Of a DNA stretch of 64,000 nucleotides, positions 32,801 to 52,308 are shown in pieces; the first letter of the stretch is position 1, and each line of letters opens with the position of its first letter. This DNA is from a virus. Location of the stretch: positions 2,402 to 66,401 of IMG/VR virus record IMGVR_UViG_3300025759_000085. One strand, 5' to 3'. Both the position numbers and the translations under genes were made by a program. The notes beneath the pieces were generated by a model. That model was not told where the DNA came from. It did no database searches and saw only the letters and a list, made by a program, of their open reading frames with translations.

Positions 32801-33264
32801 AGTCGTTTGCTCCTGCGGGTGCATCAAATGTGCTGACTTCATTCCGATATTACGATGAGGGTGTGTTAACTAGGGCAGGTGAACCTATGCTTGATGATAT
32901 TAAAGGTGGTGAAATCTTCTCTAAATTCCTAGGCTTTATGCCAACTGACTTGGCATTTAACAGCGAAAAGAGCGCTAGAGACACCAAAGTCACCACTGCT
33001 ATAGCAAAAGAGCGTAAGAAACTTACTGGTAGATACTACAAGGCGTTACGAGATAGAGACTACCAAGAAATGGCTGATACGTGGGAAGACATAAAAGAAT
33101 TTAACAAAAGGCATAAAGGTCAAAAGTTTGTTATATCGCGTGATAATATTAAGGCTTCGGTGAAAGCTCAACATAGATCTGCGGCTACTAAACATAATGG
33201 AGTTGTTGTATCTGCTATGTATAGAGAAGCCTTAATGGATAGTTGGAAAGAATACAGTAAATAA
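26860..33264 (+). CDS. large internal virion (ejection/polyvalent) protein with zincin-like HExxH domain
   Basis: 2134 aa; N-terminal Gly/Ala hydrophobic segments, LHETSHA...HEFLAE zincin signature at about 29944-30100; last gene of the late operon. Confidence 0.7.
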   Translation: MATLQDIRSAYNNAKAQGLESEARELSELYEKAYNELQRKKYPSLEVGREEETGVIGNFFKGIPTGAVGLYSSAALGAIAPLEEEAELAARKKILATQEALSFDNVDEDSIAYNLGQGVGSILGLVPAAFAGPAAIPIAGVVSGAAGAGESSERARAAGATEEERNLAALKGVGVGLTEMIPLGRLATRLKIPGLSDVMDKLVSRIDSDTVNGIVTRLQRMVGTGIIEGGQEASAAILQNLVQAGYDPEQELINMGVLEEGSYGAGSGAIVQGLKDVLSRKGRRAKVTDDSIDTTEERVEQRKFDERQEKAREERDDIQGDMFAEELNVAEQEERDKQGPPKPVQDLKEPLTERDTSTRDMIDELETAELESMVEQDKIDSTRKIDTARDRAREERTMINRRTILNRVLDSSTTTNSRALTKKFEKALQQDGYRNPKATKAEVASLESYQRTQRAEKPQRVTEAAKQKQFDDRQKAARKNRNTEQMDMFPAELQEMESRQPFLPSDSDLSKLEAKIKEQIGNVGKQTARTPDERRTRDRIQSRSEFMGQRRADGTPSAGKPLQGRLDGRKRNTRRSTRRKREPVFALGSQQELQLGAPRLRTKPVRPATMEPVEAPLIDTPTTKERVLDSGRKVDLVKYPTSSTLVPEHRKLNQDRRALKNVYDLPTTKRIQDDSLERAIPADVKEVSIYMQKFDSPMSALLHATYQVASPNNNPIKTAGITTRGLTPKKAAKVLAWAKKNLSQETNKALRTKVQQLREADAKAAQEKSEKAAAKKETADTAKKAVKTRKAKVTRKKAQPKAEAQPKPKAQPKAKAQPKPKAQPKAKAQPKAKAQPKAEPAKKGVEIDQEAVDKRKVEEAKREIKVEVMQQIAKKWKDTGVSYGALRRMLDDYGSKYMLNEATKEDITTVGKQYEGEVVREAKISKADAKVLLRMVSDKVDKLLRANKLKEALLELAKTAESSELRANARNFANKIADTKVEFVTGEETVKRYPQAYKNADEVPFAYYDYRTDTITLKEGFNTTTHFVLHETSHALSEVAIEKNPNSPAVKALYKLFNDLEGKLGTAYGTTDIHEFLAEGLNNRVFRKELGKIKVDGKEYTALDKFINIIKNILRMLRGDPPRQLGSALQEIDRLAEAILEPNLDPNFRYVRSDRGSIREMAKSTTDRLEEARLEVKEHQPGMSDFWKNMKARGGGLRNFAKFIHLSTLADIATVTGFGDLGHKLHREINKQRGSSDAAIARSDKFIEQQRKFFEGVGAKVFAAFNRIVYSPDYGATIYDVDPFGKRSDYEGKTLETVDLAEVFDELQRELNEFPIDVQRKMKEQYNREKSYYASTFNDIEKAMDVETDRIIKDSGNEAGRKLLRDINRKLLSKAKIKNYFPLVRDDGEFRIWFTYTRRDPKTGEALGVENALLTYEHVAQRDAMVERLEADPDVDNSTISKFNGELTRPLFEKSPSGTFVSDILDMLQKENVSESIQDQVIRMYAATTPENSFVRSLIARKGDFGYDQNVMTAAQTKGKSLALQAAKIRSAAEIRMAVRDITDRATELSKEEPDNAKINAVRDALIQDHANFALMGAKDKGKEYFIKHANQVAFLYTLGFNLSSAIVNMTQVPLFVMPYLAPRFGVQRTIDEFMRSARMVGGSRMSIKEFYDIKGTGEGATYTLKESHKKKIREHAMDEKAALEEIEQLESLIPVIKEADLQGKLFGTNINRELGVDEKTSRYDKLMRASAYFFVQGERFNTQTVIIGSYNLIRQQMAEQFKAGKKYYSPRLGKEIDVPPNVNELRKIAALDAIYLTQETNGGSTLETTMPVAKQDVGRLALMYKSYGVLMNSAMIKAGIKGILRIFSTPQERKIGLQQLAGIHLSAAFFAGIGGTPLWGIISTLWDLFLDDDEDDADTRLRKFIKEDFYKGPVSTLTGMSISDRVKLNDLIFQSRRYMRDPSVEANFGYYLGGPFVSTLSRFQRGMKDFADGNFLRATESFAPAGASNVLTSFRYYDEGVLTRAGEPMLDDIKGGEIFSKFLGFMPTDLAFNSEKSARDTKVTTAIAKERKKLTGRYYKALRDRDYQEMADTWEDIKEFNKRHKGQKFVISRDNIKASVKAQHRSAATKHNGVVVSAMYREALMDSWKEYSK
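28424..28621 (+). CDS. putative overprinted 65-aa protein nested out of frame in the 2134-aa gene
   Basis: AAGGAG RBS 10 nt upstream of ATG; amphipathic acidic helical sequence; the host frame is anomalously Arg-rich here. Confidence 0.5.
   Translation: MLESKLLEHLTREELETAFKVVQNSWDRDVLMVPPALESLSKEDWMVVSVTLEDLLDEKESQSLH
29251..29376 (+). repeat. 7 x 18-bp tandem repeat encoding AQPK(A/P)(K/E)
   Basis: GCACA[AG]CCTAAA[GC]C... seen directly. Confidence 0.9.
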
Positions 33265-37153: not shown

Positions 37154-37813
37154 TTAGTTTGCATTTATATCAAACCCACCTTCCACTTTACCGAAGGGTG
37201 AGGGTTCACTAGTTACAGGGACGAATGATGTGATAGCACGTTTTGTATCTTCGTGTACCACCATCTCTGCTATCTTTAGCCCATCACCTTTGTCAATAGG
37301 TCGCATAGGTTTAAAATAAAGTTTTGGAACAACACTATCTTTATCAAACGTAATGTTTGTAACGACAGCAATAACAGACGTATCATGTGAAGATAGGTGG
37401 CGAGCATACTCTTGCATACCCATGTTACCGCCTTGCGCTCTGCCGAATATAGAACTGGCAGGTATCTGCAACTGATACACCTCTTCGAGATCTCCTTCAA
37501 ACACAACAGCAAGTCGTTGTTGAAACCGACAAGCCCTACCACCATGCTCACCAGAACCACGTACATTCTGTGTACAGTCCATACACCTACGTGATTGCAC
37601 GTTATCCTCTGATACCTTGGTAGAGGGTCGTTGTGTATCATCAGACCAACAGACTGGCGCAGTAGACTTGTTAGGGTCAAACTCATTACCAAAATATGAT
37701 CTTGATACAGGCGCGGCATTCACGATGATTACATTTACCATATCACCTAAAGGGGTTTCTTGCCCATCAGCAATATCAGTAAACGTACCACCACGTATGC
37801 TCAACCTTCTCAT
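37154..37813 (-). CDS. zinc-binding SSB/recombination-associated protein
   Basis: RRLSIRGG..., PVCWSDD...C..C.QN..GSG...RAC pattern; lies in the replication cluster. Confidence 0.5.
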   Translation of the reverse strand: MRRLSIRGGTFTDIADGQETPLGDMVNVIIVNAAPVSRSYFGNEFDPNKSTAPVCWSDDTQRPSTKVSEDNVQSRRCMDCTQNVRGSGEHGGRACRFQQRLAVVFEGDLEEVYQLQIPASSIFGRAQGGNMGMQEYARHLSSHDTSVIAVVTNITFDKDSVVPKLYFKPMRPIDKGDGLKIAEMVVHEDTKRAITSFVPVTSEPSPFGKVEGGFDINAN

Positions 37814-38061
37814 TAGAAGTCCTCGTCTAACATGTCAGTGCCAAACTCGTAGTCACTGACCGCCTCTTTTTCTACCGAATCTTTATTGGTATTCAAAAAG
37901 GCGTTTTCAATCCCTTGAAGGTTGTAACGATAAGTGTTACCGATCTTCACATACATATCCGCAGGGATCTTGCCTTTACGCAACCACTGCCTGACTGTGT
38001 GTTTAGATACACTAAACTTATCTGCTACGTCACCGATTGGAACAAAATTATCTGACATCAT
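37813..38061 (-). CDS. helix-turn-helix DNA-binding protein (excisionase/HTH_17-like)
   Basis: IGDVADKFSVSKHTVRQWLRKGKIP...KIGNTYRY. Confidence 0.8.
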   Translation of the reverse strand: MMSDNFVPIGDVADKFSVSKHTVRQWLRKGKIPADMYVKIGNTYRYNLQGIENAFLNTNKDSVEKEAVSDYEFGTDMLDEDF

Positions 38062-43283: not shown

Positions 43284-43588
43284 TACTTAATCCGTTCTAT
43301 TAGCAGATTGAGATACCATTGAGCCTTTTCTAAATCCTCAAGGGGTTTACCCTTGTATTCATAACGCCACATATATTTCATACAGTTACCCTTGAGATAA
43401 CCTAGAAACGCGTTAGGACTCATACTAGACTCGATACCCTCAATACATTCTACTCCACCTGTATTGTAATGGTTCGGATTATTTACTGGATCGTCACCCA
43501 CCTCGTCCAAAAAGTTTTCATACTTCTCTATAAGTTCAGGGTGCTTCTTTCTTAGTTCGTCCCACTCTTTTGGGCTTGCATCTACCAT
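43283..43588 (-). CDS. DUF3310 / T7 gp1.7-like nucleotide kinase domain protein
   Basis: DPVNNPNHY...ECIE...GNCMKY.WRY..KG..EDLEKAQWYL. Confidence 0.85.
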   Translation of the reverse strand: MVDASPKEWDELRKKHPELIEKYENFLDEVGDDPVNNPNHYNTGGVECIEGIESSMSPNAFLGYLKGNCMKYMWRYEYKGKPLEDLEKAQWYLNLLIERIK

Positions 43589-43597
43589 AGTGTTCTC

Positions 43598-43819
43598 CTA
43601 AAAGTTTAATACAATGTGCTGTACGCCACGCGCCTTTTCAGCTAACAAGTAATCAAGCCAACTATAACTAGGATCTAAATCTTCATCTTCTAGTTTCCAT
43701 AGGCGGTTGCGCTCTCTACGTATTGCCATATCAATACTTTCTAATTCAGCCTCGACCACAGGCTTACCCTCAATCAAAGTCAAACTCCAATTGGTTAGGG
43801 TCAGGTTCGGGTAAACCAT
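43598..43819 (-). CDS. hypothetical protein (true start probably further downstream)
   Basis: Fills the gap in the operon in the correct orientation. Confidence 0.45.
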   Translation of the reverse strand: MVYPNLTLTNWSLTLIEGKPVVEAELESIDMAIRRERNRLWKLEDEDLDPSYSWLDYLLAEKARGVQHIVLNF

Positions 43820-44099
43820 TCAATATATATTGAAGGGTGTGTATTGTATCCTCATTGGTTACAGTTGCAATACCACCTGCTTGGGCGATTTGCTTTAACT
43901 CGTTCTTCTGTAACTCAGTAGGCTTGTTGCTACCTGCCTTACATTCAATACCAAAGAACTTGCCCTTGTAACAACCAACTATATCAGGCACACCACTTCT
44001 ACCATACCCACCAGTTGCGGGGTAGAAAAAGTATGCACCTATACTTCTTAGATAGTCAGCCACTTTCTTCTTCACCTTTCTTTCAGGTGTCATAGCCAT
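43770..44099 (-). CDS. VRR-NUC domain nuclease (Holliday-junction resolvase-like)
   Basis: TPE.KVK..., GVPD...IECKA...PTELQ. Confidence 0.85.
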   Translation of the reverse strand: MAMTPERKVKKKVADYLRSIGAYFFYPATGGYGRSGVPDIVGCYKGKFFGIECKAGSNKPTELQKNELKQIAQAGGIATVTNEDTIHTLQYILNGLPEPDPNQLEFDFD

Positions 44100-44122
44100 A
44101 CGTCACTCCTTACATTATTTTT

Positions 44123-44139
44123 GTTCTACAGTGTAGAAC
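44123..44139. promoter_or_regulatory. palindrome GTTCTACA-N-TGTAGAAC, copy 1
   Basis: Seen directly; upstream of the VRR-NUC RBS. Confidence 0.8.
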
Positions 44140-44144
44140 TTTTA

Positions 44145-45137
44145 TTATTCTGGGTATCCCCAGTCATATCTAACGTAATATACACTATCTGATAACTTAA
44201 CGCCAACATCATATACAAAATCATTAACACCTAAGACATCTAACACAGCTACCCTATCCGCCACACTATCTGGTAACTCGTTACGCGGTATTGTACAAGG
44301 GAAACGTCCAAAGCTCTCGTCCCAAGGTGCTTGACCACGACTTACTCTAGTGGCTTGACTGGCATGTCTGTAGTGTACATCGAATGGGTGCATCTGTATC
44401 TCATCATTCTTTATCCACACACAAGTCATGTACTCGTCATCTTCACCAAGTAGTGCATAGTAGTTCTCAATGGCTTCGTACAGCTTGCCTAGCTTTCCAT
44501 CTAACTCCTCATCTACAGTCATCAAACCCATTCGGTGCATGTCCATGACTGTTTGTGCTATGTCAGGCAAGTCACCTACACGACTTACCTCGAATCCCAC
44601 CTCGCGTGCTCGATTTGCACGCTCACTAGTTACGTCACCACGATGCTTCATAACTCGTTGTTCCACGTTATCATGTGTTGACCTAGCAATATCGGACATT
44701 GTATTGGGACGCAAGTATTTACGCGCATTGGCTACGGCTTTCGATATATTCTTGCTCGATAACGTGTGGTAGTCATCGGGTGAATTGTGTGGGCAGTATC
44801 GTTGGTTCTGTATGACGTGACTCTGTACGTGATATTGCAAGTTACCATCGTAGTACGTGGTACTCAGTCTACCCATCTCACACAAATCATCGTTGTAAAA
44901 CACCACTACCTCATATTTAGTTGTTGATACTGAACTCATAACAAACTCTACGTTGGGTAGGTGCATCGTAGCTTTGTACACAAAGTCATCAAAGAACTGG
45001 CAGAACTTACCCCACTCGTACTCGTGGCGTTTGTCGTTCTTCGTAGCTTCTCTCAAGGCTTTCACTGAACTTATTGGTCGAGAAACATCACCCTTTTTGT
45101 GGTAGTTTATTGCTCTTGGTATGGCAGATAAAAACAT
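44145..45137 (-). CDS. hypothetical early protein
   Basis: 330-aa ORF with GGAG RBS; no recognisable motif. Confidence 0.7.
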   Translation of the reverse strand: MFLSAIPRAINYHKKGDVSRPISSVKALREATKNDKRHEYEWGKFCQFFDDFVYKATMHLPNVEFVMSSVSTTKYEVVVFYNDDLCEMGRLSTTYYDGNLQYHVQSHVIQNQRYCPHNSPDDYHTLSSKNISKAVANARKYLRPNTMSDIARSTHDNVEQRVMKHRGDVTSERANRAREVGFEVSRVGDLPDIAQTVMDMHRMGLMTVDEELDGKLGKLYEAIENYYALLGEDDEYMTCVWIKNDEIQMHPFDVHYRHASQATRVSRGQAPWDESFGRFPCTIPRNELPDSVADRVAVLDVLGVNDFVYDVGVKLSDSVYYVRYDWGYPE

Positions 45138-45147
45138 TTCATATCTC

Positions 45148-46119
45148 CTATTTGTAGTCTTGATACTTGATTTTGAAGTTGGCTAACTTGTCAACCTGTG
45201 ACTTGAACCTACTCATAAACTTCTTCTCATCTTCTGGTGGTGATGACGTTTGAGTCTGCCAGTCATACTCGGATATTTCACCCAGTATAGCTATGGCTAC
45301 AGGCGAACGTCGCTCATCGGTAGGGTCTTTCAACATATCACGAAACACATCACTGTCAGTTATCGCATCACCACACTGTTGTCGTATGAGTCGTTGGTGT
45401 TCCCAGTCGTAGTGATCGCGGTTCATCAATATGGTTTGCATTACCCAAGCCCATTCGGCATACTCACGTATAGCTTCGTAATACTTACGCTTTTCTGGAC
45501 TAACCTTGATACGTGTTACAGGTTGTTTGTGGCGTTCGGTTGTACATGTCCACTGTTCATGTGACTTGAATGGATCACGCTGAAAGTCTAGGTACTTACC
45601 ATCATCAGTCTTTGTCATAGGCTGTGTATTCCATGCTGTCTCGCCATGACTTGTACGCATATCAATTAGCGATTTATACATGTGACTGTTGACCCACGTA
45701 GACTTGGGTAGGTAATGATTAGTGCCACCATGTACGACGTATTGCTTACCCTGTTGAACCAGAAAATCCATACACCTCGGTAGTGCACGTGCTAAGAATG
45801 AATAGCGTTGATTGTGACACGTGTCACCATAGTCGTTGCGGACTCGGATTTTCTCGATACCAGTATGCGCACATCTTGTCCATGTAACAGGCGCACGTGC
45901 TATCTCTTCTTTGGTGCTACCACACCAGAACCTGTTACCCTCATCGTCGGGTATCTTGTCCATGAGTACGTACTTGTTCTTGTTGACCTTGATGATGTGC
46001 TCCCACTTACGCGCACGATCACCGAGTGGTACTTGACCTGTAGTACGTATTGGTTTGACGCTGTCGTAGAGTCGTCTTACTTCTGCGAAAGTATTTAGAT
46101 TGTAATGATACATAGCCAT
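45148..46119 (-). CDS. hypothetical early protein
   Basis: 323-aa ORF with GAGG RBS; no recognisable motif. Confidence 0.7.
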   Translation of the reverse strand: MAMYHYNLNTFAEVRRLYDSVKPIRTTGQVPLGDRARKWEHIIKVNKNKYVLMDKIPDDEGNRFWCGSTKEEIARAPVTWTRCAHTGIEKIRVRNDYGDTCHNQRYSFLARALPRCMDFLVQQGKQYVVHGGTNHYLPKSTWVNSHMYKSLIDMRTSHGETAWNTQPMTKTDDGKYLDFQRDPFKSHEQWTCTTERHKQPVTRIKVSPEKRKYYEAIREYAEWAWVMQTILMNRDHYDWEHQRLIRQQCGDAITDSDVFRDMLKDPTDERRSPVAIAILGEISEYDWQTQTSSPPEDEKKFMSRFKSQVDKLANFKIKYQDYK

Positions 46120-46138
46120 AGTTTAGTTCCTCAATAAA

Positions 46139-46155
46139 GTTCTACACTGTAGAAC
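46139..46155. promoter_or_regulatory. palindrome copy 2
   Basis: AAGTTCTACACTGTAGAACTT; immediately upstream of the RBS of 45148..46119. Confidence 0.8.
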
Positions 46156-46197
46156 TTGTTATCAGTTGTTTAGTTACGTTAGGGGGTAAGATGTACC

Positions 46198-46383
46198 TTA
46201 TCCCTGTAATAGTCTTGCCCATGCTTGCGCTAGGCGTTCTCTATCTTCTTCGGTTGATTTGTCATAACGTGTTGTCATAGCATCTAACCGAAACTCCACT
46301 GCCTTTTGTACTTCTTGGACTGCTACGTCCCACTCCATGCGTCGATGTACGGCTTCCATGCCCATACCAAATGACTCACTCAT
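46198..46383 (-). CDS. small hypothetical protein
   Basis: 61 aa, AGGAG RBS, ATGA overlap with the upstream gene. Confidence 0.6.
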   Translation of the reverse strand: MSESFGMGMEAVHRRMEWDVAVQEVQKAVEFRLDAMTTRYDKSTEEDRERLAQAWARLLQG

Positions 46384-47615
46384 ATCATATCTCCTGATTT
46401 AACATGTACTGTTGAACCACAGTTAGGTGTTGCACTGCGGTTATCTAGTATGCACCACAACACTGGGTTTGACCAAGAACCCCAACCGCCATACAAATAA
46501 CCATCAGTCAGTACGATTGATGCTTGCGGGCTGATGTTGTTCTCTGCCATGTAACTTGTTACACAGTTAACATCTGTACCACCACCACCCTCGGGCTTGG
46601 TAGACTCGACCATGTCATGTAGTTCGTGCATCTCATACTTCTCGTCACGACATACCTCAGTGTCCCAATACAGTACACGTAGACACTTGGGGTGTACTGT
46701 CTCACAGATAGACTTGATCTCGGATAGGAACACCGATAACTCACGCTGACCGATAGAGCCTGACGTATCAATAGCAACCACTAACTCGTCAACCTGCTCG
46801 GATATACCGCTAGGTAAATACATACCTGTGTGCAATCGTCTGCGGTTGGGTCGGTTGTATGTAGCATAGTCAGAGCCACTACAGTGTGTGGTAATGTAGT
46901 CACGTAACACCTCACGCCAATCAACCTGTGGTTCGAGTAGGTCGGCTACTGTACGCTCACCACCACTGCCCATCTTACTTGCACTGATAGCACCCTGACG
47001 TATCGCATCGTCAATCTCTTTGGATAACTCTTTCTGCTCCTCGTCGGTCATCTCTTGCGCACCTTCCCAGTCATGCTCATCGAATGGCTGTTGGCTAGAC
47101 TGTTGCGACGAACTGGACGACTGTTGCCCATCATCTGTTGACTCGTTACCACCAGAACCATTATCTTCTTGCTGTTGCTGGTAGATGTCATTGAACACTT
47201 TGGGTGTAGCCCAACCACGATACTTGGTGTCGTAACACATACCATCAATACCCTCGACAAATCCGTCGTCTTTGTGTGCGTCGAGTATCTGTATGTTGAT
47301 GACATAGTCCATCGCTCTGTTGGCTGTCATAGCACAGCGTAGCCACAGGTGATGCCACGTTGTAAGATGCTTGTACATCTTGTGGTAACACTCATGCAGT
47401 ATTACAAAACGTAACTGCGCATCAGTCAGACTGTCAACAAACGCACGACCATAGAACTCGTCACGACCATTGGTACACGCTGTCGGTATATCGTCACGTA
47501 CCTCACGCTTGCCCACCATCAGTACACCTGCTAGTGCAAAGTACAATGGGTGGTTGACGATAGACACAATCGCTTTGTGTATGCGTTGTTCTGCTGTCAG
47601 ATTAGAGACTAACAT
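46380..47615 (-). CDS. DUF2201-type metallopeptidase + VWA domain protein
   Basis: PTACTNG, HExxH (LHECYH), N.A.D..IN; MIDAS IDTSGS, GGGGTD and LTDG. Confidence 0.85.
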   Translation of the reverse strand: MLVSNLTAEQRIHKAIVSIVNHPLYFALAGVLMVGKREVRDDIPTACTNGRDEFYGRAFVDSLTDAQLRFVILHECYHKMYKHLTTWHHLWLRCAMTANRAMDYVINIQILDAHKDDGFVEGIDGMCYDTKYRGWATPKVFNDIYQQQQEDNGSGGNESTDDGQQSSSSSQQSSQQPFDEHDWEGAQEMTDEEQKELSKEIDDAIRQGAISASKMGSGGERTVADLLEPQVDWREVLRDYITTHCSGSDYATYNRPNRRRLHTGMYLPSGISEQVDELVVAIDTSGSIGQRELSVFLSEIKSICETVHPKCLRVLYWDTEVCRDEKYEMHELHDMVESTKPEGGGGTDVNCVTSYMAENNISPQASIVLTDGYLYGGWGSWSNPVLWCILDNRSATPNCGSTVHVKSGDMI

Positions 47616-48688
47616 TTGTCTGCACCGAACATGTAGTTGTTCTCACGACACCAAACAGTAAAACTCTTGTTGGTGGTAACGAGTGACTTGTTCTTGTATG
47701 TGTCGGGTTTGATACCAAGTGCGAACAGACCTTGTGCTTCCTTACTCAACCTGCCCATGTACTTGAACCAAGCATCAATCCACGTTTTGTCGAGTGATGC
47801 AAGCGCACGATACACGACCATACATACGGCACTGGCACTGTCGGGTACGATTGCATTCATTGGGTCAGTCTTGATGGACTCGAGCGTTGGTAGCTTGTCG
47901 GCTAGTTTGACAAACGCCATCATGTCGAGTGCTCCACGCTCACCGATAGTACCAATCAATGCGCCTGTTAACGTGTCATCGGATAGGTGCTCGCGTTGGT
48001 GTAGTATGTCAGATGCACACTCGAGTGAACGTGGTGTACAGAATGATTTAGATTGTCGCTTGGGGTGATAGATGTATGGGTTGTCATCGGGGTTGTTAAC
48101 CTCAGTGAATGACTGCATGACTTGTGGAAACTCACGTACGAAACCCATGACTGATGGGTGTACGTCGTTGTTGATAGCGTAGTTGTTGATCCACTCATCA
48201 GATGACGGCTTGCGCATACGTACTGTGATGATACGATTGCGTGCATGTGGTGGTAACATATCACCGACACCCTCAGCACCCAGATTGGTAGTTGCAAACA
48301 CAATGCTACCCTCGGGTAAGTGTTGGTTGCCAATCATGTGCTCGAGCATGACAACAAGTAACGCGTTCTTGACTGATGGGTTAGCTTTGCCCAGTTCGTC
48401 AAGCATGAGTATTAACGGCTTACCAAGATGTACACCAAACTGCTCGTTGGGTAGGAATGATACACAACCTGCTTCACGATTGAGATCGGGTATAAACAAG
48501 TCACCAAGATCTTTGGTGGTACAATCAAACAAACATGCAATGTGATCGGGTAACAATCGCTTGAGTGTTTTGAGTAGGCTAGACTTACCAATACCCATGT
48601 CACCCTCGATTAGTACAGTGCGTTTACCACCTACGTGTAATAGTAGTTGGACTATCTCTTCAATACTGCTTACATATACGTTATTCAT
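47609..48688 (-). CDS. MoxR-like AAA+ ATPase
   Basis: Walker A GDMGIGKS, Walker B LMLDE, ATTN sensor, arginine finger ARNR, TPRS. Confidence 0.85.
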   Translation of the reverse strand: MNNVYVSSIEEIVQLLLHVGGKRTVLIEGDMGIGKSSLLKTLKRLLPDHIACLFDCTTKDLGDLFIPDLNREAGCVSFLPNEQFGVHLGKPLILMLDELGKANPSVKNALLVVMLEHMIGNQHLPEGSIVFATTNLGAEGVGDMLPPHARNRIITVRMRKPSSDEWINNYAINNDVHPSVMGFVREFPQVMQSFTEVNNPDDNPYIYHPKRQSKSFCTPRSLECASDILHQREHLSDDTLTGALIGTIGERGALDMMAFVKLADKLPTLESIKTDPMNAIVPDSASAVCMVVYRALASLDKTWIDAWFKYMGRLSKEAQGLFALGIKPDTYKNKSLVTTNKSFTVWCRENNYMFGADKC

Positions 48689-48843
48689 AGCTTCGTTCCT
48701 CGGTTAGAAGTTCTACACTGTAGAACATTTTTAGGTAGATGCTTGGTGCGCTTGAGTATTACCCTGCGCACGTTCGCATTCTCGTTAACGTGGTACAGCT
48801 TGTTACCACGCCACATCTCTTTGCATCGTGTATTAGTCTGCAT
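48685..48843 (-). CDS. possible 52-aa basic protein (not in the ORF track)
   Basis: MQTNTRCKEM...RGTKL; fills the gap exactly and ends in an ATGA overlap with the ATPase; no clear RBS. Confidence 0.3.
   Translation of the reverse strand: MQTNTRCKEMWRGNKLYHVNENANVRRVILKRTKHLPKNVLQCRTSNRGTKL
48710..48726. promoter_or_regulatory. palindrome copy 3
   Basis: Seen directly; upstream of the AAA ATPase RBS. Confidence 0.8.
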
Positions 48844-48845
48844 AG

Positions 48846-49724
48846 TTAGATGTCCAGTGATGGTAGTGACTTGAGTATGTCATCTACCTTAGATTTAGTT
48901 TCGGCACGCAAGAACTCGTCATCACGTAACCCCTCGGGTGTCACACCACGTAACGTAGACTCGAGCCGTTGGCGCATAGCTTCCATCTGACTGTCACCTG
49001 TCACGTTACATGTAGTCAACAAGTCAACCATTGATAACGCGTTACTGACTAGCGTATCGCGGAACACTTGCTTCTTGCCGTTGCTGTCGGTCAGCTTGTC
49101 CGACATGTTAGACAATGCAGTGTGCATACGTTTCCACACATCACCCATCGCCTTGCTTAGTTGGTCGGAGTAGAACTTGTCATACTCTGCTTTGAGTTGC
49201 GTGCTTGCTTCGTTGCCAATGTCCACACGAAAATCACCTGCATCAGGTAGTGGTGTGTAGTTGACACTGACACCGAACTTACTGCGTATCTGCTCGGACG
49301 TTGGATAGTCATCACGTACAAACAAGTTACCGAGCTTTGCCTGTGCACGTGACACTGCAAAGTCATAGTCATCAATGAACTCGTCAACCAGTGCATCGAA
49401 CGCATTGATTGCCTCACTCATCTGTTGGTTGTAGTCAAAGTACACTGCGGTAGGTAACAACCTCAACCCACTGTCTGACCAAGGCATAGTCATCGGGTAA
49501 TGTATGTGGTTGCGTATCTTGCCACGTATCTCATTGATAGCTTTCAGCTTGTCACAGTCACCGAGTAACATCTTATTGACTGACACCACGCCATTGTCTG
49601 CGTAGTTCTGATCTGCGACTGTCTTGGACTCGCGCCTGTCTTTCTTGCGTCCTGTCCACACACTGATATTTAACTCTGTAAGCATCGCGCTTGATGCTAG
49701 GCTTGGGGCTTGGATATTATCCAT
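48846..49724 (-). CDS. DUF3150-like protein
   Basis: L.ISVWTGRKKD N-terminal motif and YP....IR.KF; adjacent to the AAA/VWA pair. Confidence 0.6.
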   Translation of the reverse strand: MDNIQAPSLASSAMLTELNISVWTGRKKDRRESKTVADQNYADNGVVSVNKMLLGDCDKLKAINEIRGKIRNHIHYPMTMPWSDSGLRLLPTAVYFDYNQQMSEAINAFDALVDEFIDDYDFAVSRAQAKLGNLFVRDDYPTSEQIRSKFGVSVNYTPLPDAGDFRVDIGNEASTQLKAEYDKFYSDQLSKAMGDVWKRMHTALSNMSDKLTDSNGKKQVFRDTLVSNALSMVDLLTTCNVTGDSQMEAMRQRLESTLRGVTPEGLRDDEFLRAETKSKVDDILKSLPSLDI

Positions 49725-49941
49725 TGTCGTTCTCCTCGTTGTTTTGTTCTACAGTTGTAGAACTTTGATTTAGTGCGTACTCTTTATTGAGACGCACACG
49801 CTCTGCCCAGTAGGTGTCATTGTCCACTGGGGTTTGTTGCTCGATATACTCACGCAATACCTCGCGCCACTCTGCACCGATCTCACTCATCGCCACTCTC
49901 CTCATCAATGTACCACTTGATCTCACGCATGATGTAGTCAA
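49717..49941 (-). CDS. small hypothetical early protein (start probably at 49890)
   Basis: GAGGAG precedes the internal ATG (MSEIGAEW). Confidence 0.5.
   Translation of the reverse strand: MTTSCVRSSGTLMRRVAMSEIGAEWREVLREYIEQQTPVDNDTYWAERVRLNKEYALNQSSTTVEQNNEENDNG
49746..49763. promoter_or_regulatory. palindrome copy 4 (2-nt centre)
   Basis: GTTCTACA-GT-TGTAGAAC inside a coding 3' end, upstream of the DUF3150 RBS. Confidence 0.75.
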
Positions 49942-50089
49942 GTTCTAGGTTAAAGTTCTTGCGCATCTGACTAGGCATATTGTCAATAGAATCGACGTAG
50001 TTCTGTAACGCGTCCATATTCATTAATGCACGCTCAAAGGGAATGTTATTTGTCATTGTCGTTATCCTTTTTAAAGTAGGGTGAATCAA
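49883..50089 (-). CDS. small hypothetical early protein (start probably at 50056)
   Basis: AAGGA precedes MTNNIPF. Confidence 0.5.
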   Translation of the reverse strand: MIHPTLKRITTMTNNIPFERALMNMDALQNYVDSIDNMPSQMRKNFNLELDYIMREIKWYIDEESGDE

Positions 50090-50243
50090 ATACTGCTACC
50101 TTTGGCTCTTGATCGCGTAGCAGATCGTCAAACATCTGGTCAACGCTACAACCTGCTAGTCGCTGTCCGTCTGTCTCGTCGAGTACATCTGCGTGCTCCA
50201 TCAGCAGATAGTACAAACTGTTGTTGAAATCTAATTTGTTCAT
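50046..50243 (-). CDS. small acidic early protein (MNKLDFNN...)
   Basis: GAGG RBS before the ATG at 50243; first gene after the strong promoter. Confidence 0.55.
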   Translation of the reverse strand: MNKLDFNNSLYYLLMEHADVLDETDGQRLAGCSVDQMFDDLLRDQEPKVAVFDSPYFKKDNDNDK

Positions 50244-50262
50244 AGTTAGTACCTCAATAAAA

Positions 50263-50279
50263 GTTCTACAGTGTAGAAC
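50263..50279. promoter_or_regulatory. palindrome copy 5
   Basis: Seen directly; in the 5' leader of the early operon. Confidence 0.8.
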
Positions 50280-50342
50280 TAAGTTAGTTATCGTTGCGCA
50301 CGGCAACACCTGCGAACGAGTTATCACCCGATCACTTAGATT

Positions 50343-50370
50343 AGTATACCACAGTGGGTTGTTGTGTCAA
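50343..50370 (-). promoter_or_regulatory. strong sigma70-type early promoter
   Basis: TTGACA-16 nt-TATACT with extended -10 TG. Confidence 0.75.
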
Positions 50371-50383
50371 GTTATGTAAATAC

Positions 50384-50883
50384 GTGTGGGAATGTGTGTG
50401 GTGTTGATATTGTTACAAAATGACTGTTACAGAAACGCTGTAATGTTACTCGATTGTTACTTTTTGTTTTTGGCTACAGACCAGTGGTGATGCGGAATGT
50501 TACTTTGTTACCAACTTTTGGGAAAATGAGAGGCGATATTTATTTTTAAGTTCTACATTGTAGAACAAATCTGCCAGAGTGCCCTCGAATAAACGCCATA
50601 TATATATTTTCTTAAAAAGGTAACATTATAAATATATTAATTAATAGATAGATAGAAACATACAATCGCACACATTGCTAATATCATGCGCGTTCGCTAT
50701 ACCACACGATCCCACACAAAGCTGTTTTGTTACCTTTTTGCAAAACATTTGGTAACAAATGGGTAACATTAGGGTTACATTGGTAACATTACAAAGTAAC
50801 ATTCGCTCAACACTATACAATCTACTGGTATCACGTACGAACGTGTAACTACTTGCTCAACACGATTCAATTTACTGGTATCA
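50384..50883. other. putative replication origin (inverted TGTTAC/GTAACA iteron arrays around an AT-rich core)
   Basis: TGTTAC at 50411, 50425, 50444, 50455, 50498, 50506 and 50728; GTAACA at 50620, 50752, 50763, 50783 and 50796; AT-rich tract at about 50598-50660. Confidence 0.65.
50550..50566. promoter_or_regulatory. palindrome copy 6
   Basis: Seen directly, inside the putative origin. Confidence 0.8.
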
Positions 50884-50899
50884 AAAGAAAAAAATAAAA

Positions 50900-50916
50900 G
50901 TTCTACAATGTAGAAC
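50900..50916. promoter_or_regulatory. palindrome copy 7
   Basis: AAAGTTCTACAATGTAGAACTTT (23-bp perfect dyad). Confidence 0.8.
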
Positions 50917-50924
50917 TTTGAGGC

Positions 50925-50951
50925 AAAAAAAAGCCACCCCGAAGGGTGGCT
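50925..50951 (-). terminator. intrinsic terminator
   Basis: AGCCACCC-TTCG-GGGTGGCT followed by a T run on the - strand, just after the 178-aa gene. Confidence 0.85.
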
Positions 50952-50967
50952 CTGTTGGTGGGTTGGT

Positions 50968-51504
50968 TTACTTGGTGACTCTTACCGATAAGATGCGTTG
51001 AGCATCGTTGAGCGCTTTGGATAGCGCGACTACATCATACTCAGGATTGTCGTCTTTCTCTGCAATCTTGAGCGCCTTGTTGATAGCCTCGCGCATTTTG
51101 ACGATGTCGCTAACTGGTGCGCTTGGCGCTTTTTCCTTGTTAGGATTTTCTAACTCGTCTAGCTTGTTAGCGATTCGGTCGATGTAAGTACCAACATCTT
51201 GTTGCACCGATTTGCGCTTGGCTTTTTTGGTGTCGTCCCATTCTTTGGCTACTGACTTCGGTGCACTGTATAGCTTGTAAGACTCAGCGCCTAGTCCGAA
51301 CGCTAGCGCATCGCGTCGCGCCTCGTATTGCTCAGGCGATGCAGTGCTAGTGTACTGCTTAGACTTTGGCGACCTAAAGTCTGTAGCTTTATGGGTCTGA
51401 TGAATTTCAAGAATGATGCTCGCCAAAGTTTTCTTAGCTTTGCTATCAGTCTTCGCGTAGTTTGACAAGGCTGTTTTCTCAGCGCTAGTGATTAAGTTAT
51501 TCAT
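50968..51504 (-). CDS. hypothetical basic helical protein, monocistronic first early gene
   Basis: 178 aa, AAGGA RBS, its own promoter and terminator. Confidence 0.75.
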   Translation of the reverse strand: MNNLITSAEKTALSNYAKTDSKAKKTLASIILEIHQTHKATDFRSPKSKQYTSTASPEQYEARRDALAFGLGAESYKLYSAPKSVAKEWDDTKKAKRKSVQQDVGTYIDRIANKLDELENPNKEKAPSAPVSDIVKMREAINKALKIAEKDDNPEYDVVALSKALNDAQRILSVRVTK

Positions 51505-51559
51505 ATCATCAAATATCCTTTAGTTAGTAGCCAGTGCGTTATTGCTCTGACTTGTTTAT

Positions 51560-51589
51560 ATAGTAATACATTAGGACGTATAAAGTCAA
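51560..51589 (-). promoter_or_regulatory. sigma70-like promoter
   Basis: TTGACT-18 nt-TACTAT. Confidence 0.55.
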
Positions 51590-51623
51590 CACTTTCTTTC
51601 ACTATCTTACACAAGATTACAAA

Positions 51624-51640
51624 GTTCTACACTGTAGAAC
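51624..51640. promoter_or_regulatory. palindrome copy 8
   Basis: Seen directly, about 35 bp upstream of the -35 box. Confidence 0.8.
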
Positions 51641-51800
51641 TAATTGACCCCCCACCCCCCGTTTCGTCATTTTGGAGTCCCATCTATCTAGTAATACCAA
51701 TTTACTCAAATAAATCGTATTTTTCTGAAACCCCCCACCTTGTTTAAAAAAGGCTAGGCAAAAAATTTTTTGTGTGTTACTTTTGAAAACTGATCCATAA

Positions 51801-52268
51801 GTGTATAAGGAACGTATGGGGCAAAAGTTAGTCGAAGGAGAATCGAGTCACGTCGGACGTGTAGGTGAGTTCTTTGCCATATATAAATTAGAAAAATATG
51901 GTATAGAGTGCCACCATGTAGATCGTTCCGGCATAGACTTGTGGTGCCAATCGTTAGACAATTCGTTATTCACAGTTCAAGTCAAATCATCAAACATCTG
52001 CCATTTCAATCAGCATAACAAAAGACCAAACTTTTCGGGCTACGCATATAACCTAAGAGCAGATCATGTAGCAGATTTCTATGTATTTGTAGCATTAGAT
52101 ATAGAACGTATGATTGTAAAACCTGTTGAGGAGCTAGAAGGAAAGACACAGCTACGGTTAACCGCCTCGGATTTTACAAGGGAAGAAGAATTAGAAGGCG
52201 TGAGTCTACTTAGATCCTTTAAAAGGGAAGATCATCTTCAAAGTAAATGCAAACAAGTCCTAAACTAG
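51801..52268 (+). CDS. PD-(D/E)XK endonuclease-like protein
   Basis: G.VGE....., GIDL, VQVKSS and DFYVFV motifs. Confidence 0.7.
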   Translation: MYKERMGQKLVEGESSHVGRVGEFFAIYKLEKYGIECHHVDRSGIDLWCQSLDNSLFTVQVKSSNICHFNQHNKRPNFSGYAYNLRADHVADFYVFVALDIERMIVKPVEELEGKTQLRLTASDFTREEELEGVSLLRSFKREDHLQSKCKQVLN

Positions 52269-52308
52269 TTACTAAACAAGCAGACAATAGGAACATATCC
52301 GGATACAT
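52219..52308 (-). CDS. 29-aa hydrophobic peptide MYPDMFLLSACLVTSLGLVCIYFEDDLPF (not in the ORF track)
   Basis: GGAGG RBS 4 nt upstream of ATG; TATAAT at 52347-52352 on the - strand. Confidence 0.5.
   Translation of the reverse strand: MYPDMFLLSACLVTSLGLVCIYFEDDLPF

Follow-up and report, generated by a model that had tools for sequence, protein, structure and literature searches.

What are the eight copies of a strict palindrome in the early arm of this virus for, and what reads them? The window analysed is a stretch of 64 kb, bases 2402-66401 of a 66,401-base virus record. A pattern search of the window for GTTCTACA-N(0-4)-TGTAGAAC gave exactly eight matches, at 44123, 46139, 48710, 49746 (2-nt centre), 50263, 50550, 50900, and 51624, all of which fit GTTCTACA-N(1-2)-TGTAGAAC and all of which had been placed there in the preliminary description. 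No match was present in any of 100 dinucleotide-preserving shuffles. When up to three mismatches were allowed in the 1-nt-centre pattern, only the same seven copies were recovered, against 0.41 expected by chance, therefore degenerate copies are absent. Outside the palindromes, the 8-mer half-site GTTCTACA occurs once and TGTAGAAC twice in the 64 kb. It had also been claimed that the motif is absent from the rest of the sequence; a scan of the whole 66.4-kb record supports this, finding the same eight copies and no further one, all within one 7.5-kb stretch. The 17-bp duplex form of the palindrome is GTTCTACAGTGTAGAAC. The copies, labelled S1 to S8, are located among the following features of the early arm.

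51624..51640, no strand: S1 palindrome, in the intergenic region between the divergent early and late genes, 5′ of the first early promoter
51560..51589, minus strand: P1, sigma-70-like promoter of the first early gene, TTGACT-18-TACTAT
50968..51504, minus strand: first early gene, 178 aa, proposed cognate palindrome-binding protein; predicted homodimer of a putative new all-alpha family
50930..50953, minus strand: intrinsic terminator 3′ of the first early gene; 10-bp stem, 6 GC pairs, T-run
50900..50916, no strand: S2 palindrome, directly past the terminator; the dyad reaches 11 bp per arm
50280..50899, no strand: origin-like non-coding region of 620 nt, 35.5 % GC, containing S3 and promoter P2
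50550..50566, no strand: S3 palindrome, within the origin-like region, with no adjoining gene start
50343..50370, minus strand: P2, strong sigma-70-like promoter of the early operon, TTGACA-16-TATACT with TG, 11/12 matches
50263..50279, no strand: S4 palindrome, in the P2 transcript leader, 18-19 nt before the ATG at 50243
49746..49763, no strand: S5 palindrome, 18 bp with a 2-nt centre, 21 nt before the ATG of the DUF3150 gene (48846..49724)
48710..48726, no strand: S6 palindrome, 21 nt before the ATG of the MoxR-like ATPase gene (47609..48688)
46139..46155, no strand: S7 palindrome, 17-19 nt before the ATG of a 323-aa gene (45148..46119)
44123..44139, no strand: S8 palindrome, 23 nt before the ATG of the Hjc-like nuclease gene (43770..44099)

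The five ribosome-binding site cassettes quoted previously were found as written on the minus strand, and the five copies in them end 17-23 nt before the ATGs at 50243, 49724, 48688, 46119, and 44099. The other three are also placed as described, two flanking the first early gene (S1 and S2) and one within the origin-like region (S3). The centre of S1 is approximately 80 nt upstream of the predicted P1 start, and a promoter equivalent to P1 is kept in the related lineages L005 and L080. S5 to S8 are inside the early operon, S8 starting 5 nt past the stop of a 330-aa gene; only S1 and S4 are near predicted promoters. The reported extension of the dyad by AAA/TTT is not significant, since it is seen in 4/8 copies versus about 2/8 expected by chance. 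Within the origin-like region there are 14 GTAAC/GTTAC pentamers, versus an average of 2.07 per 620 nt, and a 29-nt repeat occurs twice (50805-50833 and 50855-50883), both times with the family-conserved ATACCAGT motif. Among the ORFs scanned with PHROGs and Pfam there is no integrase, ParA/B, or repressor family, which does not in itself prove a lytic lifestyle. Rfam 15 gave no match at the gathering score over 43500-52300; the single sub-threshold match, STnc100, is over the terminator (19.7 bits versus a gathering score of 47, E 0.71).

These palindromes belong to a family-wide system of aquatic phages. A dominant palindrome of its own, in at least three copies, is present in 72 out of 80 related loci (73 out of 81 counting the window arm), each locus reaching at most 10 kb to either side of the ATPase gene. 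About 15 palindrome sequence types occur across the family, of approximately 17 bp and at orthologous positions in the same architecture: around the first early gene, which adjoins the origin-like region in all lineages, in the origin-like region itself, and shortly 5′ of the ribosome-binding sites of early genes. Genomes have 5-11 sites each, and in three near-complete relatives every copy of the genome's own palindrome is within 7-10 kb of early arm. The 373 distinct sites of the family are mostly outside long ORFs (328), and 168 of them are 12-23 nt (the modal range) before a start codon with a Shine-Dalgarno (SD) sequence, compared with 7 out of 373 in the antisense control. In spacers of at least 100 nt, 99 out of 125 sites are nearer to the downstream start than to the upstream stop. 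Beyond phages, the exact palindrome was found in 88 stretches in 596 Gb of bacterial and archaeal genomes, where approximately 139 would be expected by chance for 16 fixed bases; 87 of the 88 are single copies in unrelated taxa, and none of 185,579 species genomes has multiple dispersed copies.

Co-variation was assessed in the 46 loci for which a palindrome type and the full length of the first protein are available. First proteins are at least 50 % identical in 142 of the 195 same-type pairs and in only 6 of the 840 different-type pairs, all six being GTCTACA versus GTATACA, half-sites that differ by one base. Among pairs with ATPases at least 95 % identical, the first proteins are 64-100 % identical when the type is the same (31 pairs) and 0-24 % identical when it is different (8 pairs). 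Three independent near-isogenic pairs, with DNA 89-98 % identical, have a non-homologous first gene and most or all palindromes replaced. In the case of L048 and L058, the DNA is 89-93 % identical over approximately 18 kb except for approximately 1.1 kb containing the first gene, and L025 and L029 are 97.4 % and 94.7 % identical outside this gene. Likewise, L066 and L067 are 91-98 % identical, with flanks identical to the edge of the palindrome and the palindrome itself swapped.

This co-variation supports the earlier proposal of a dedicated cis-acting network with a phage-encoded cognate factor, for which the 178-aa gene (50968..51504) had been named as a candidate. The HTH gene (37813..38061; HTH_17), also named, is ruled out, as its HTH region stays almost the same from one palindrome type to another and does not co-vary with the type. 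The swapped block also contains the promoter, leader, terminator and, in some lineages, a second small ORF, any of which could in principle be the co-varying partner, and the near-isogenic pairs leave room for a second co-varying gene beyond 10 kb of the ATPase gene. In the mosaic genomes L027 and L012/L013, the palindrome type changes along the arm and non-cognate sites are present, as they are in L029; not every site needs its cognate protein at all times.

Based on structure prediction (pLDDT 89.9, all-alpha), the 178-aa protein is likely to represent a new all-alpha family. Searches of Pfam, PHROG, and PDB with it gave no match, and the family itself comprises 630 clusters (representatives) at 50 % identity, all labelled hypothetical. 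The first early gene is fast-evolving. A symmetric homodimer is predicted, with a score of 0.84 against a best control of 0.00, a symmetric interface, at least 91 % of contacts shared between runs, and a partner pLDDT of 85. The mark for this score was reached by 20 out of 30 proteins solved as pairs and 1 out of 23 solved as single chains, counts that hold only roughly because an own alignment was used. Residues ~73-102, outside the interface, carry the best-conserved basic motif of the family, K-x-K-R-x-x-Q-Q. In VIA-align, approximately 13 of 50 weak structural rows put residues ~52-116 on a sigma region 4/LuxR-type helix-turn-helix (Z 4-5), a resemblance that is taken as a lead only. No DNA-binding family or fold was above noise in the sequence and structure searches, with no Pfam match at E <= 1 beyond noise and nothing from Foldseek at E <= 0.001.

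Most lineages have a 17-bp element in which the outer 6-8 bp are fixed and the central 1-5 bp are free, for example GTTAGT-N5-ACTAAC, TTATGC-N5-GCATAA, and GTTCTA-N5-TAGAAC. Within genomes the length can differ by 1 bp, as in S5 of the window and in 5 of the 11 listed sites of L070; a change of this kind is easier for a hairpin than for a rigid dimer. The sites of L029 are five cognate, one unconverted, one intermediate palindrome, and one hybrid, GTTAGTG..CACTACC, which would have a T·C mismatch if folded as a hairpin, and GTTAGGG..CACTAAC hybrids are present in L072. The half-sites behave independently. One-mismatch variants comprise 5 that would give a G·U pair on the sense strand, 6 that would do so on the antisense strand, and 25 others. 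Some copies fall outside the predicted early transcripts: S1 precedes P1 in the window, in L005 and L080, and in several further lineages, whereas S2 and S3 are past the terminator and ahead of P2. Double-stranded DNA is favoured over an RNA hairpin as the probable ligand because of the constant 17-bp geometry with its free centre, the hybrid sites, the lack of G·U bias, and the copies outside predicted transcripts.

The first early protein might nonetheless recognise the palindromes in early mRNAs, folded into hairpins with a 7-bp stem and a 3-4-nt loop, and either control translation of the gene 12-23 nt downstream or act in antitermination or processing like lambda N at nut sites. This is unlikely, yet it would suit the placement of sites just 5′ of an SD sequence and start codon and the start-proximal bias in long spacers, and a 1-nt change in centre length would be harmless to it. 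Every copy in the window folds as a hairpin (-6.9 to -9.7 kcal/mol, z -2.8 to -5.3), T-runs follow S2, S4, and S7, all three of which score as weak terminators, and in several lineages S1 is in the 5′ leader of the first gene, which is also where lambda nutL is found. Hairpin-binding proteins, however, usually read the loop and not the stem base, whereas the present elements have a free loop and a fixed stem base. S2 and S3, and in the window lineage also S1, fall outside the predicted sense transcripts, the hybrid and one-mismatch sites break pairing without a G·U preference, and the predicted symmetric dimer would present two equal reading heads, suited to a DNA dyad, a single hairpin being pseudo-symmetric only. 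In antitermination of the lambda N/nut type, an arginine-rich peptide reads a conserved hairpin loop at a small number of sites in early leaders; this does not agree with a free loop, a fixed stem, 5-11 sites, and S1-S3 outside predicted transcripts. It is highly improbable that the elements are protein-independent structures (weak bidirectional terminators, for instance, or hairpins that stabilise mRNA) or boxes for a host factor. As hairpins they are stable and AT-flanked, and 5/8 copies pass a terminator-like scan on one of the two strands; a purely structural element, however, needs neither sequence identity within a genome nor co-variation with a phage gene. No single host factor fits, because each lineage has a different palindrome sequence, and a host transcription-factor box is ruled out by the lineage-specific co-variation and the chance-level occurrence in bacterial genomes. 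Intrinsic (Rho-independent) terminators were likewise rejected, the stems holding only 3 GC pairs and the sense strand passing the scan in 2/8 copies (S2 and S4); A-runs follow S5 and S8.

Alternatively, the protein could be an origin-organising, partition-like, or DNA-entry factor, binding the origin-flanking sites and others along the part of the DNA that acts first in the cell. Dimers that bind identical palindromes at dispersed positions are known from parS/ParB and the KorB operators of IncP plasmids, S2, S3, and S4 bracket the AT-rich region with its pentamers and duplicated conserved element, and the first early gene always adjoins this region. However, the iteron-like GTAAC/GTTAC and ATACCAGT are kept across lineages with different palindromes, therefore the origin's own recognition does not co-vary, 5/8 sites are at gene starts far from the origin, and no ParA/ParB-like or initiator family was matched; such a role in replication or genome handling is quite improbable. 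Even less credit is given to the palindromes being recombination points that shuffle early-gene cassettes, as had been suggested, with uniformity within genomes arising through gene conversion and the first gene merely linked. Homology breakpoints are enriched near the palindromes, 80 out of 388 being no more than 40 nt away, where a null that drew random positions, not intergenic ones only, gave 28.8 on average and 47 at most; the breakpoints are not independent. Two extra small ORFs are inserted directly after S5 in L005, L027 and L012/L013 switch type along the arm, and the phage has genes for a gp2.5-like annealing protein and a PD-(D/E)XK exonuclease. Conversion between sites with unrelated flanks cannot explain how a 17-bp element is replaced exactly within flanks 97-100 % identical, nor that in each of the three independent contrasts the type follows one and the same gene. 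What stands, in part, of the earlier suggestion is the enrichment of homology breakpoints near the palindromes, as a side property.

By a modest balance of probability, the palindromes are the binding sites of the predicted dimeric 178-aa regulator, in an operator- or stoperator-like network with many specificities. This corresponds best to the operators for a dimeric phage regulator that were one of three mechanisms offered in the preliminary description, leaving aside the coupling of early shut-off to origin firing that had been attached to them. A homodimer would read two 6-8-bp half-sites, about one helical turn apart, on duplex DNA. The protein would be made first, from a host-type promoter, and would then occupy the site at its own promoter, both sides of the origin-like region, the early-operon leader, and four downstream intergenic gaps. 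Most likely this would bring about autoregulation together with throttling or timing of early transcription, the sites serving as operator and roadblock in the manner of stoperators; repression or a roadblock is the presumed effect of binding. The sites may additionally mark the origin.

Because protein and sites appear to form a specificity pair that differs between near-identical phages, each lineage would have a private code. Rather doubtfully, this code might confer immunity or incompatibility during lytic growth, a resident protein silencing later genomes that have the same sites. If so, rare specificities would be favoured, since newcomers sharing the resident's sites would be silenced, and the family could have diversified into its hundreds of protein clusters as rare specificities gained. 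New types would arise through a swap of the regulator gene, after which the dispersed operators would be converted site by site; L029, L027, and L012 may have been caught in mid-conversion.

If binding by the first early protein is correct, a function and a ligand would be provided for a large unannotated family of phage early proteins, and the '17-bp dyad repeats of unknown function' known in other phages would gain their first candidate factor. Regulator-operator co-evolution can be followed here at unusually fine resolution, in near-isogenic natural genomes that differ almost only in the regulator and 5-11 operators, and transitional genomes with half-converted sites exist. Two long-standing questions are therefore open to direct tests: by what route the specificity of a dispersed regulon can change with no dead intermediate on the way, and whether there is immunity-like exclusion in virulent phages. 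In practical terms, many orthogonal protein-site pairs of identical architecture would be ready-made insulated regulators.

Repeated intergenic stem-loops at gene boundaries that coincide with mosaic junctions are shared with the PeSL cassettes of T4-type phages, which include an early promoter and have no dedicated protein, and with REP/RAYT systems, in which REP palindromes flank the cognate gene, as S1 and S2 flank the first early gene here. RAYTs are relatives of HUH-tyrosine transposases; a REP/RAYT origin (REPtron) was rejected, the 178-aa protein being all-alpha by prediction and matching no transposase family. KorA/KorB of IncP plasmids and ParB-parS combine dispersed identical palindromic operators with a dimeric autoregulated protein. 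The present sites are like these in being at promoters, far from promoters, and near an origin on a mobile element; the protein, however, matches neither ParB/KorB nor KorA in sequence or fold, and the setting is a phage early arm and not a plasmid backbone. In lambdoid heteroimmunity (repressor/Cro and operators; N and nut), the operators form a cluster next to the regulator gene, and one recombination swaps both together. Near-identical phages with a swapped early regulator and its sites, and a first early gene product with sites in early leaders, are common to both, but here the sites are dispersed over 7-10 kb among conserved genes and are replaced one by one.

The stoperators of Cluster A mycobacteriophages such as L5 and Bxb1 are asymmetric, 13 bp long, and aligned with the direction of transcription; they are present genome-wide at 20-30 per genome and are bound by the monomeric immunity repressor of temperate phages (PMC6550527, PMC9283540). 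The similarities are the many copies of a short phage-specific site, mostly off promoters and in short intergenic gaps, and a site consensus that co-varies with a single binding phage protein and defines specificity groups, binding being proposed in the present case (PMC6550527, PMC9283540). By contrast, the sites here are perfect 17-18-bp palindromes, at 5-11 per genome and in the early arm only, and the candidate protein is the product of the first early gene, a predicted dimer of an unrelated unannotated family (PMC6550527). The Cluster A phages are temperate, whereas here no integrase or partition gene was found in the ORFs scanned with PHROGs and Pfam. The 17-bp dyad repeats of Cluster O mycobacteriophages, TGTTCGG-NNN-CCGAACA, are reported in more than 30 copies genome-wide, about one-third inside genes (PMC4351075). 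A dimeric DNA-binding protein is predicted there, its identity and the function of the repeats being left unknown, and five genomes share one common motif, so that co-variation is not visible (PMC4351075). The two systems agree in the 17-bp length, invariant 7-bp arms, free 3-bp centre, and many copies between genes or close to their starts, and in neither case are the phages obviously temperate; unlike in Cluster O as described there, a candidate cognate gene is picked out here by co-variation (PMC4351075).

The pattern GTTCTACA-N(0-4)-TGTAGAAC has exactly eight matches in the window (S1 to S8, listed below), the same eight that the preliminary description had reported, and none of 100 dinucleotide-preserving shuffles contained any match. 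Tolerating up to three mismatches gained no copy (chance expectation, 0.41), and the lone 8-mer half-sites occur one and two more times in the 64 kb. The window comprises bases 2402-66401 of the 66,401-base virus record, and a scan of the entire record added none, in agreement with the earlier statement that no full copy lies elsewhere. Five copies had been placed before ribosome-binding sites, and on the - strand these five end 17-23 nt 5′ of the ATGs at 50243, 49724, 48688, 46119, and 44099. All particulars of the preliminary description thus hold except the extension of the dyad by AAA/TTT, which is present in four of the eight copies and so not above chance.

The record is a tailed-phage genome, with structural and packaging genes on the + strand.

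Features of the early arm and its surroundings (window positions)
54588, + strand: portal gene
53036, + strand: terminase gene
51624: palindrome S1, 5′ of the first promoter
51589-51560, - strand: predicted sigma-70-like promoter opening the early arm
51504 down to 33353, - strand: early/replication arm
51504-50968, - strand: first early gene, encoding the 178-aa protein
50953-50930, - strand: strong intrinsic terminator after the 178-aa gene
50900: palindrome S2, directly after the terminator of the first early gene
50550: palindrome S3, within an AT-rich non-coding region
50370-50343, - strand: predicted, near-consensus second promoter
50263: palindrome S4, in the leader of the second promoter
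49746 (2-nt centre), 48710, 46139, and 44123: palindromes S5 to S8, in intergenic gaps of the operon

The arm carries the 178-aa first gene, small ORFs, DUF3150, a MoxR-like ATPase, a DUF2201/VWA protein, two unknown proteins, an Hjc-like nuclease, DUF3310, PolA, a PD-(D/E)XK exonuclease, an SNF2 helicase, an 82-aa HTH_17 protein, a gp2.5-like SSB, and a DUF927 primase-helicase. The trio of DUF3150, MoxR-like AAA ATPase, and DUF2201 metallopeptidase/VWA protein (46380-49724, - strand) is found in the early operon of all relatives. No ORF scanned with PHROGs and Pfam matched an RNA polymerase, an integrase, or a partition gene. On the + strand, a single ORF (7160-23068) encodes 5302 aa, which is exceptionally long for a virion protein of a 66-kb phage; minor-head, tail-needle, and fibre-like PHROGs match its C-terminal half repeatedly, and nothing matches its N-terminal 2613 aa. 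In a 2134-aa ORF (26860-33264, + strand), DarB-like antirestriction PHROGs match the last 750 aa (E 8e-39); its product is probably an injected anti-defence protein.

Relatives were collected by searching IMG/VR with the ATPase. Out of 127 stretches returned, the analysis used the 80 best, with ATPases 97% to 54% identical to that of the window, as loci reaching at most 10 kb to either side of the ATPase gene. The GTTCTACA..TGTAGAAC palindrome is present only in the closest relatives, and nearly all others have another palindrome in 3-11 copies. Among these types are GTGTAACA.N.TGTTACAC, TACTGCGA.N.TCGCAGTA, TGTATACAT.ATGTATACA, TGTCTACAT.ATGTAGACA, GTTAGTG.NNN.CACTAAC, GTTAGT-N5-ACTAAC, TGTAGTGA.N.TCACTACA, GGTAGTCC.NN.GGACTACC, GTTAGGGA.N.TCCCTAAC, GTTATAACG.CGTTATAAC, GTTATACA.N.TGTATAAC, TTATGC-N5-GCATAA, and TGTAA-N4-TTACA. 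A dominant palindrome family of three or more copies was detected in at least 73 of the 81 sequences (80 loci and the window), a lower bound because detection missed short-armed types such as TGTAA-N4-TTACA in locus L042. Every lineage with enough upstream sequence has the orthologous order of palindrome, first early ORF (168-235 aa), palindrome, origin-like region with one or two palindromes, and then palindrome and ribosome-binding site before shared conserved genes. In three near-complete relatives (62, 58, and 59 kb) every palindrome copy falls inside 7-10 kb. A Shine-Dalgarno sequence and start codon lie within 50 nt downstream of 168 of the 373 distinct sites, mostly at 12-23 nt, against 7 of 373 in the antisense control; 45 of the 373 are inside long ORFs.

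Beyond this family, the window palindrome was found in 88 stretches of 596 Gb of bacterial and archaeal genomes, 87 of them single copies in unrelated taxa, where about 139 would be expected by chance; these numbers give no indication of a host box or of prophage copies. A contig of the planctomycete Stieleria mannarensis has four exact copies about 109 nt apart (136938-137482), which probably form a tandem or CRISPR-like array with no relation to the phage. Within IMG/VR the palindrome occurs in 55 stretches, and the contigs with several copies are pieces of the window's own lineage. Sequencing runs labelled as freshwater and as marine metagenomes, from nine or more studies, contain near-identical DNA (0.67-0.99 of sampled words), which means either that the phage lineage occurs widely or that the labelling is loose. 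In a search for cultured relatives, the early arm had no megablast match among 50,697 phage records, and protein searches returned distant relatives only, with best identities of 36% (PolA) and 29% (DUF3150). A full-text literature search found no description of the phage group or of the first early protein, although one may exist.

The preliminary description had named two candidates for the cognate factor, the 178-aa gene and the HTH gene (37813-38061, - strand). The first early proteins form one divergent family (mean column identity 24%), and an HMM built from their alignment found exactly one member in each of 50 loci. It found none in the four loci of the TTATGC-N5-GCATAA type (L077, L079, L081, and L083), for three of which the upstream region is outside the locus, while the upstream 204-aa ORF of L083 escaped the HMM. 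Pairs were counted over the 46 loci with a full-length first protein and an assigned type, leaving out L055 and L070 (partial proteins) and L042 and L043 (no type assigned). Among 195 same-type pairs, the first proteins are at least 50% identical in 142, 30-50% in 51, and less than 30% in two. Among 840 different-type pairs, identity reaches 50% in only six, all between the GTCTACA and GTATACA types, half-sites that are one base apart. When the ATPases are at least 95% identical, the first proteins are 64-100% identical in the 31 pairs of the same type and 0-24% identical in the eight pairs of different type, which represent three independent contrasts.

Loci L048 (TGTAGTGA type, 11 sites) and L058 (GTTAGT-N5-ACTAAC type, 10 sites) share 89-93% DNA identity along about 18 kb, except for about 1.1 kb without similarity that contains the first early gene, its promoter, and its terminator. 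Likewise, the first gene differs between L025 and L029, which are 97.4% and 94.7% identical, and between L066 and L067, which are 91-98% identical. In the alignment of L066 with L067 the flanks are the same up to the palindrome edge, with the palindrome replaced and its length sometimes changed. The 178-aa gene thus co-varies with palindrome type over the 46 loci and in three near-isogenic contrasts, and its protein and the palindromes are very probably a cognate pair. The second candidate, the 82-aa HTH_17/MerR-like protein, was rejected as the specificity factor because its HTH region is almost the same between lineages of different palindromes. It has homologues in 17 loci and a conserved acidic C-terminal tail (..LDEDF/LDEDL) resembling those of T7 gp2.5-type SSBs, which suggests docking on a replication protein rather than a classical repressor role.

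Protein and sites are exchanged between phages with 89-98% identity in the rest of their sequence, and mosaics occur: in L027 the left-hand sites are TGTAGTGA and the right-hand ones GTTAGTC, L012 and L013 have TACTGCGA sites together with one GTTCTACA site, and L029, described below, is a further case. A co-adapted set of specificities in a population that recombines is expected to show this pattern, which resembles heteroimmunity, although here the operators are dispersed and replaced one by one. It had also been proposed that the palindromes are recombination sites by which cassettes of early genes are shuffled. Of 388 homology breakpoints between relatives, 80 lie within 40 nt of a palindrome, about 2.8 times the mean of 28.8 (maximum 47) under the null; that null used random positions, uncorrected for intergenic position, and cassette shuffling is therefore considered possible as a side effect only.

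Neither Pfam nor PHROGs has a family for the 178-aa protein, and its sequence profile had no significant match in the PDB (best E 0.16). A word-indexed search identified 55 homologues, all 'hypothetical' or unnamed and from metagenome collections. With an E cutoff of <= 0.001, an exhaustive profile search gave representatives of 630 clusters (50% identity), 368 of them at E <= 1e-10; among the 150 listed, nearly all are 160-220 aa long. AlphaFold2, with a 29-sequence alignment, gave a confident all-alpha model of eight helices (pLDDT 89.9). Foldseek found nothing above noise (best E 2.6 in the PDB and 1.7 in BFVD), VIA-align reached Z 6.3 for the C-terminal hairpin only and then 5.9, and the ESM Atlas returned unnamed viral clusters only, the nearest named cluster (score 0.80) being within the chance range. 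Residues 1-124 modelled alone (pLDDT 92.7) gave about 13 weak rows in 50 (Z 4-5) to sigma-factor region 4 or LuxR-type helix-turn-helix structures at residues ~52-116, a likeness that is treated as a lead.

Two copies of the protein are predicted to form a symmetric dimer (score 0.84; highest of three controls, 0.00); runs share at least 91% of contacts and the partner pLDDT is 85. Among proteins solved as pairs, 20 of 30 reached the dimer mark, as did 1 of 23 among those solved as single chains; these counts hold only roughly here because a custom alignment was used. The predicted interface consists of the N-terminal helix and the C-terminal helical hairpin, leaving outside it residues ~73-102, which include the most conserved basic motif of the family, K-x-K-R-x-x-Q-Q. 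Comparison of within-type and between-type identity per column, which is confounded by phylogeny, gave no reading helix.

In most lineages the element is 17 bp long; each arm is fixed over its outer 6-8 bp, the 1-5 bp at the centre vary freely, and the half-sites are therefore about one helical turn apart, a geometry that favours recognition of duplex DNA. A hairpin-binding protein is expected to read the loop, and that the free part of the palindrome is the would-be loop argues against the possible alternative that the first early protein acts at the RNA level on palindrome hairpins. Three results favour RNA: the stability of such hairpins (-6.9 to -9.7 kcal/mol), their close spacing to start codons, and the 1-bp length variation within genomes (S5 in the window and five of the 11 listed sites of L070). 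In favour of duplex DNA, however, wobble bias is absent, as the 36 one-mismatch variants comprise five sense G·U, six antisense G·U, and 25 neither. Half-sites also vary independently in L029, in which a GGTAGTCC-type protein was acquired in an L025-like (GTTAGTG-type) background: five sites are cognate, one is an unconverted GTTAGTG, one is an intermediate palindrome GGTAGTGCC.GGCACTACC, and one is a hybrid GTTAGTG..CACTACC, which would place a T·C mismatch in a stem. In addition, some copies fall outside the predicted transcripts: S1, in the window lineage and in a number of others, is 5′ of the first predicted promoter, and S2 and S3 follow the terminator but precede the second promoter. 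In four RNA-library runs only 6-8% of words were present, in short contigs from relatives that are silent on ends, strand, and level. One contig begins at the S6 centre beside adapter letters and one fold-back contig begins inside S8, but such single low-depth records were left out of the evidence. The stretch 43500-52300 has no Rfam match at threshold. Duplex DNA is probably the recognised ligand, rather than RNA, and the full statement, that the 178-aa protein binds the palindromes as duplex DNA and controls early transcription, is considered moderately probable.

In the proposed mechanism, the first gene would be transcribed from a host-type promoter, stopping at its own terminator, and its product would find the sites by its own promoter, giving autoregulation. 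The same protein would occupy the sites around the origin-like region, in the main early-operon leader, and in the four gaps along the operon. A class II activator site for the downstream gene is excluded on geometric grounds, since the centre-to-ATG distance is only 20-32 nt and a +41.5 start would be intragenic. Because the sites cannot activate the gene immediately downstream, operator and roadblock action, as shown for Cluster A stoperators (PMC6550527), would be the simplest reading. Hairpin promoters for a phage RNA polymerase, as in N4, were also rejected: no ORF, including those of the 5302-aa and 2134-aa proteins, matched such a polymerase, and the palindromes end 2-10 nt before the Shine-Dalgarno sequence, leaving no room for a start site.

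It is also possible that the protein-site pair has an origin or partition-like role. The 620-nt non-coding region after the terminator is 35.5% GC and contains 14 GTAAC/GTTAC pentamers, against an average of 2.07 per 620 nt and a maximum elsewhere of seven. Just after S2, a 29-nt element with ATACCAGT is present in two copies (50805-50833 and 50855-50883). Its core (GATACCAGTT ... GCGCCGAGCC in many relatives) is kept 3′ of S2 in L005-L084, across lineages with differing palindromes; the element has no Rfam match and may be the true origin or a primase-helicase recognition element, or a small RNA. On the - strand upstream of S1 (51641-51735) are a motif with a run of G (GGGGGGTGGGGGG in the early-sense orientation) and a conserved box resembling 'ATTAGTAATATATAG', located in most lineages (L005, L008, L011, L036, and others) between S1 and the divergent late/packaging genes. 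This stretch could be a genome end, a packaging signal, or a late promoter region.

Lambdoid immunity modules and the KorA/KorB regulons are among the near systems, and what the window shares with the nearest known systems is a single phage protein that goes with many identical sites, their specificities co-evolving. In the stoperator/repressor network of Cluster A (PMC6550527), the sites are asymmetric, the repressor is monomeric, and the phages are temperate. The 17-bp dyad repeats of Cluster O have the same layout as the palindromes here, and PMC4351075, which describes them, assigns neither a factor nor a function. The system in the window differs in the symmetry of its sites and their confinement to the early arm, in its new protein family, in the likely virulent lifestyle of the phage, and in the fine grain at which dispersed sites are replaced among near-isogenic genomes.
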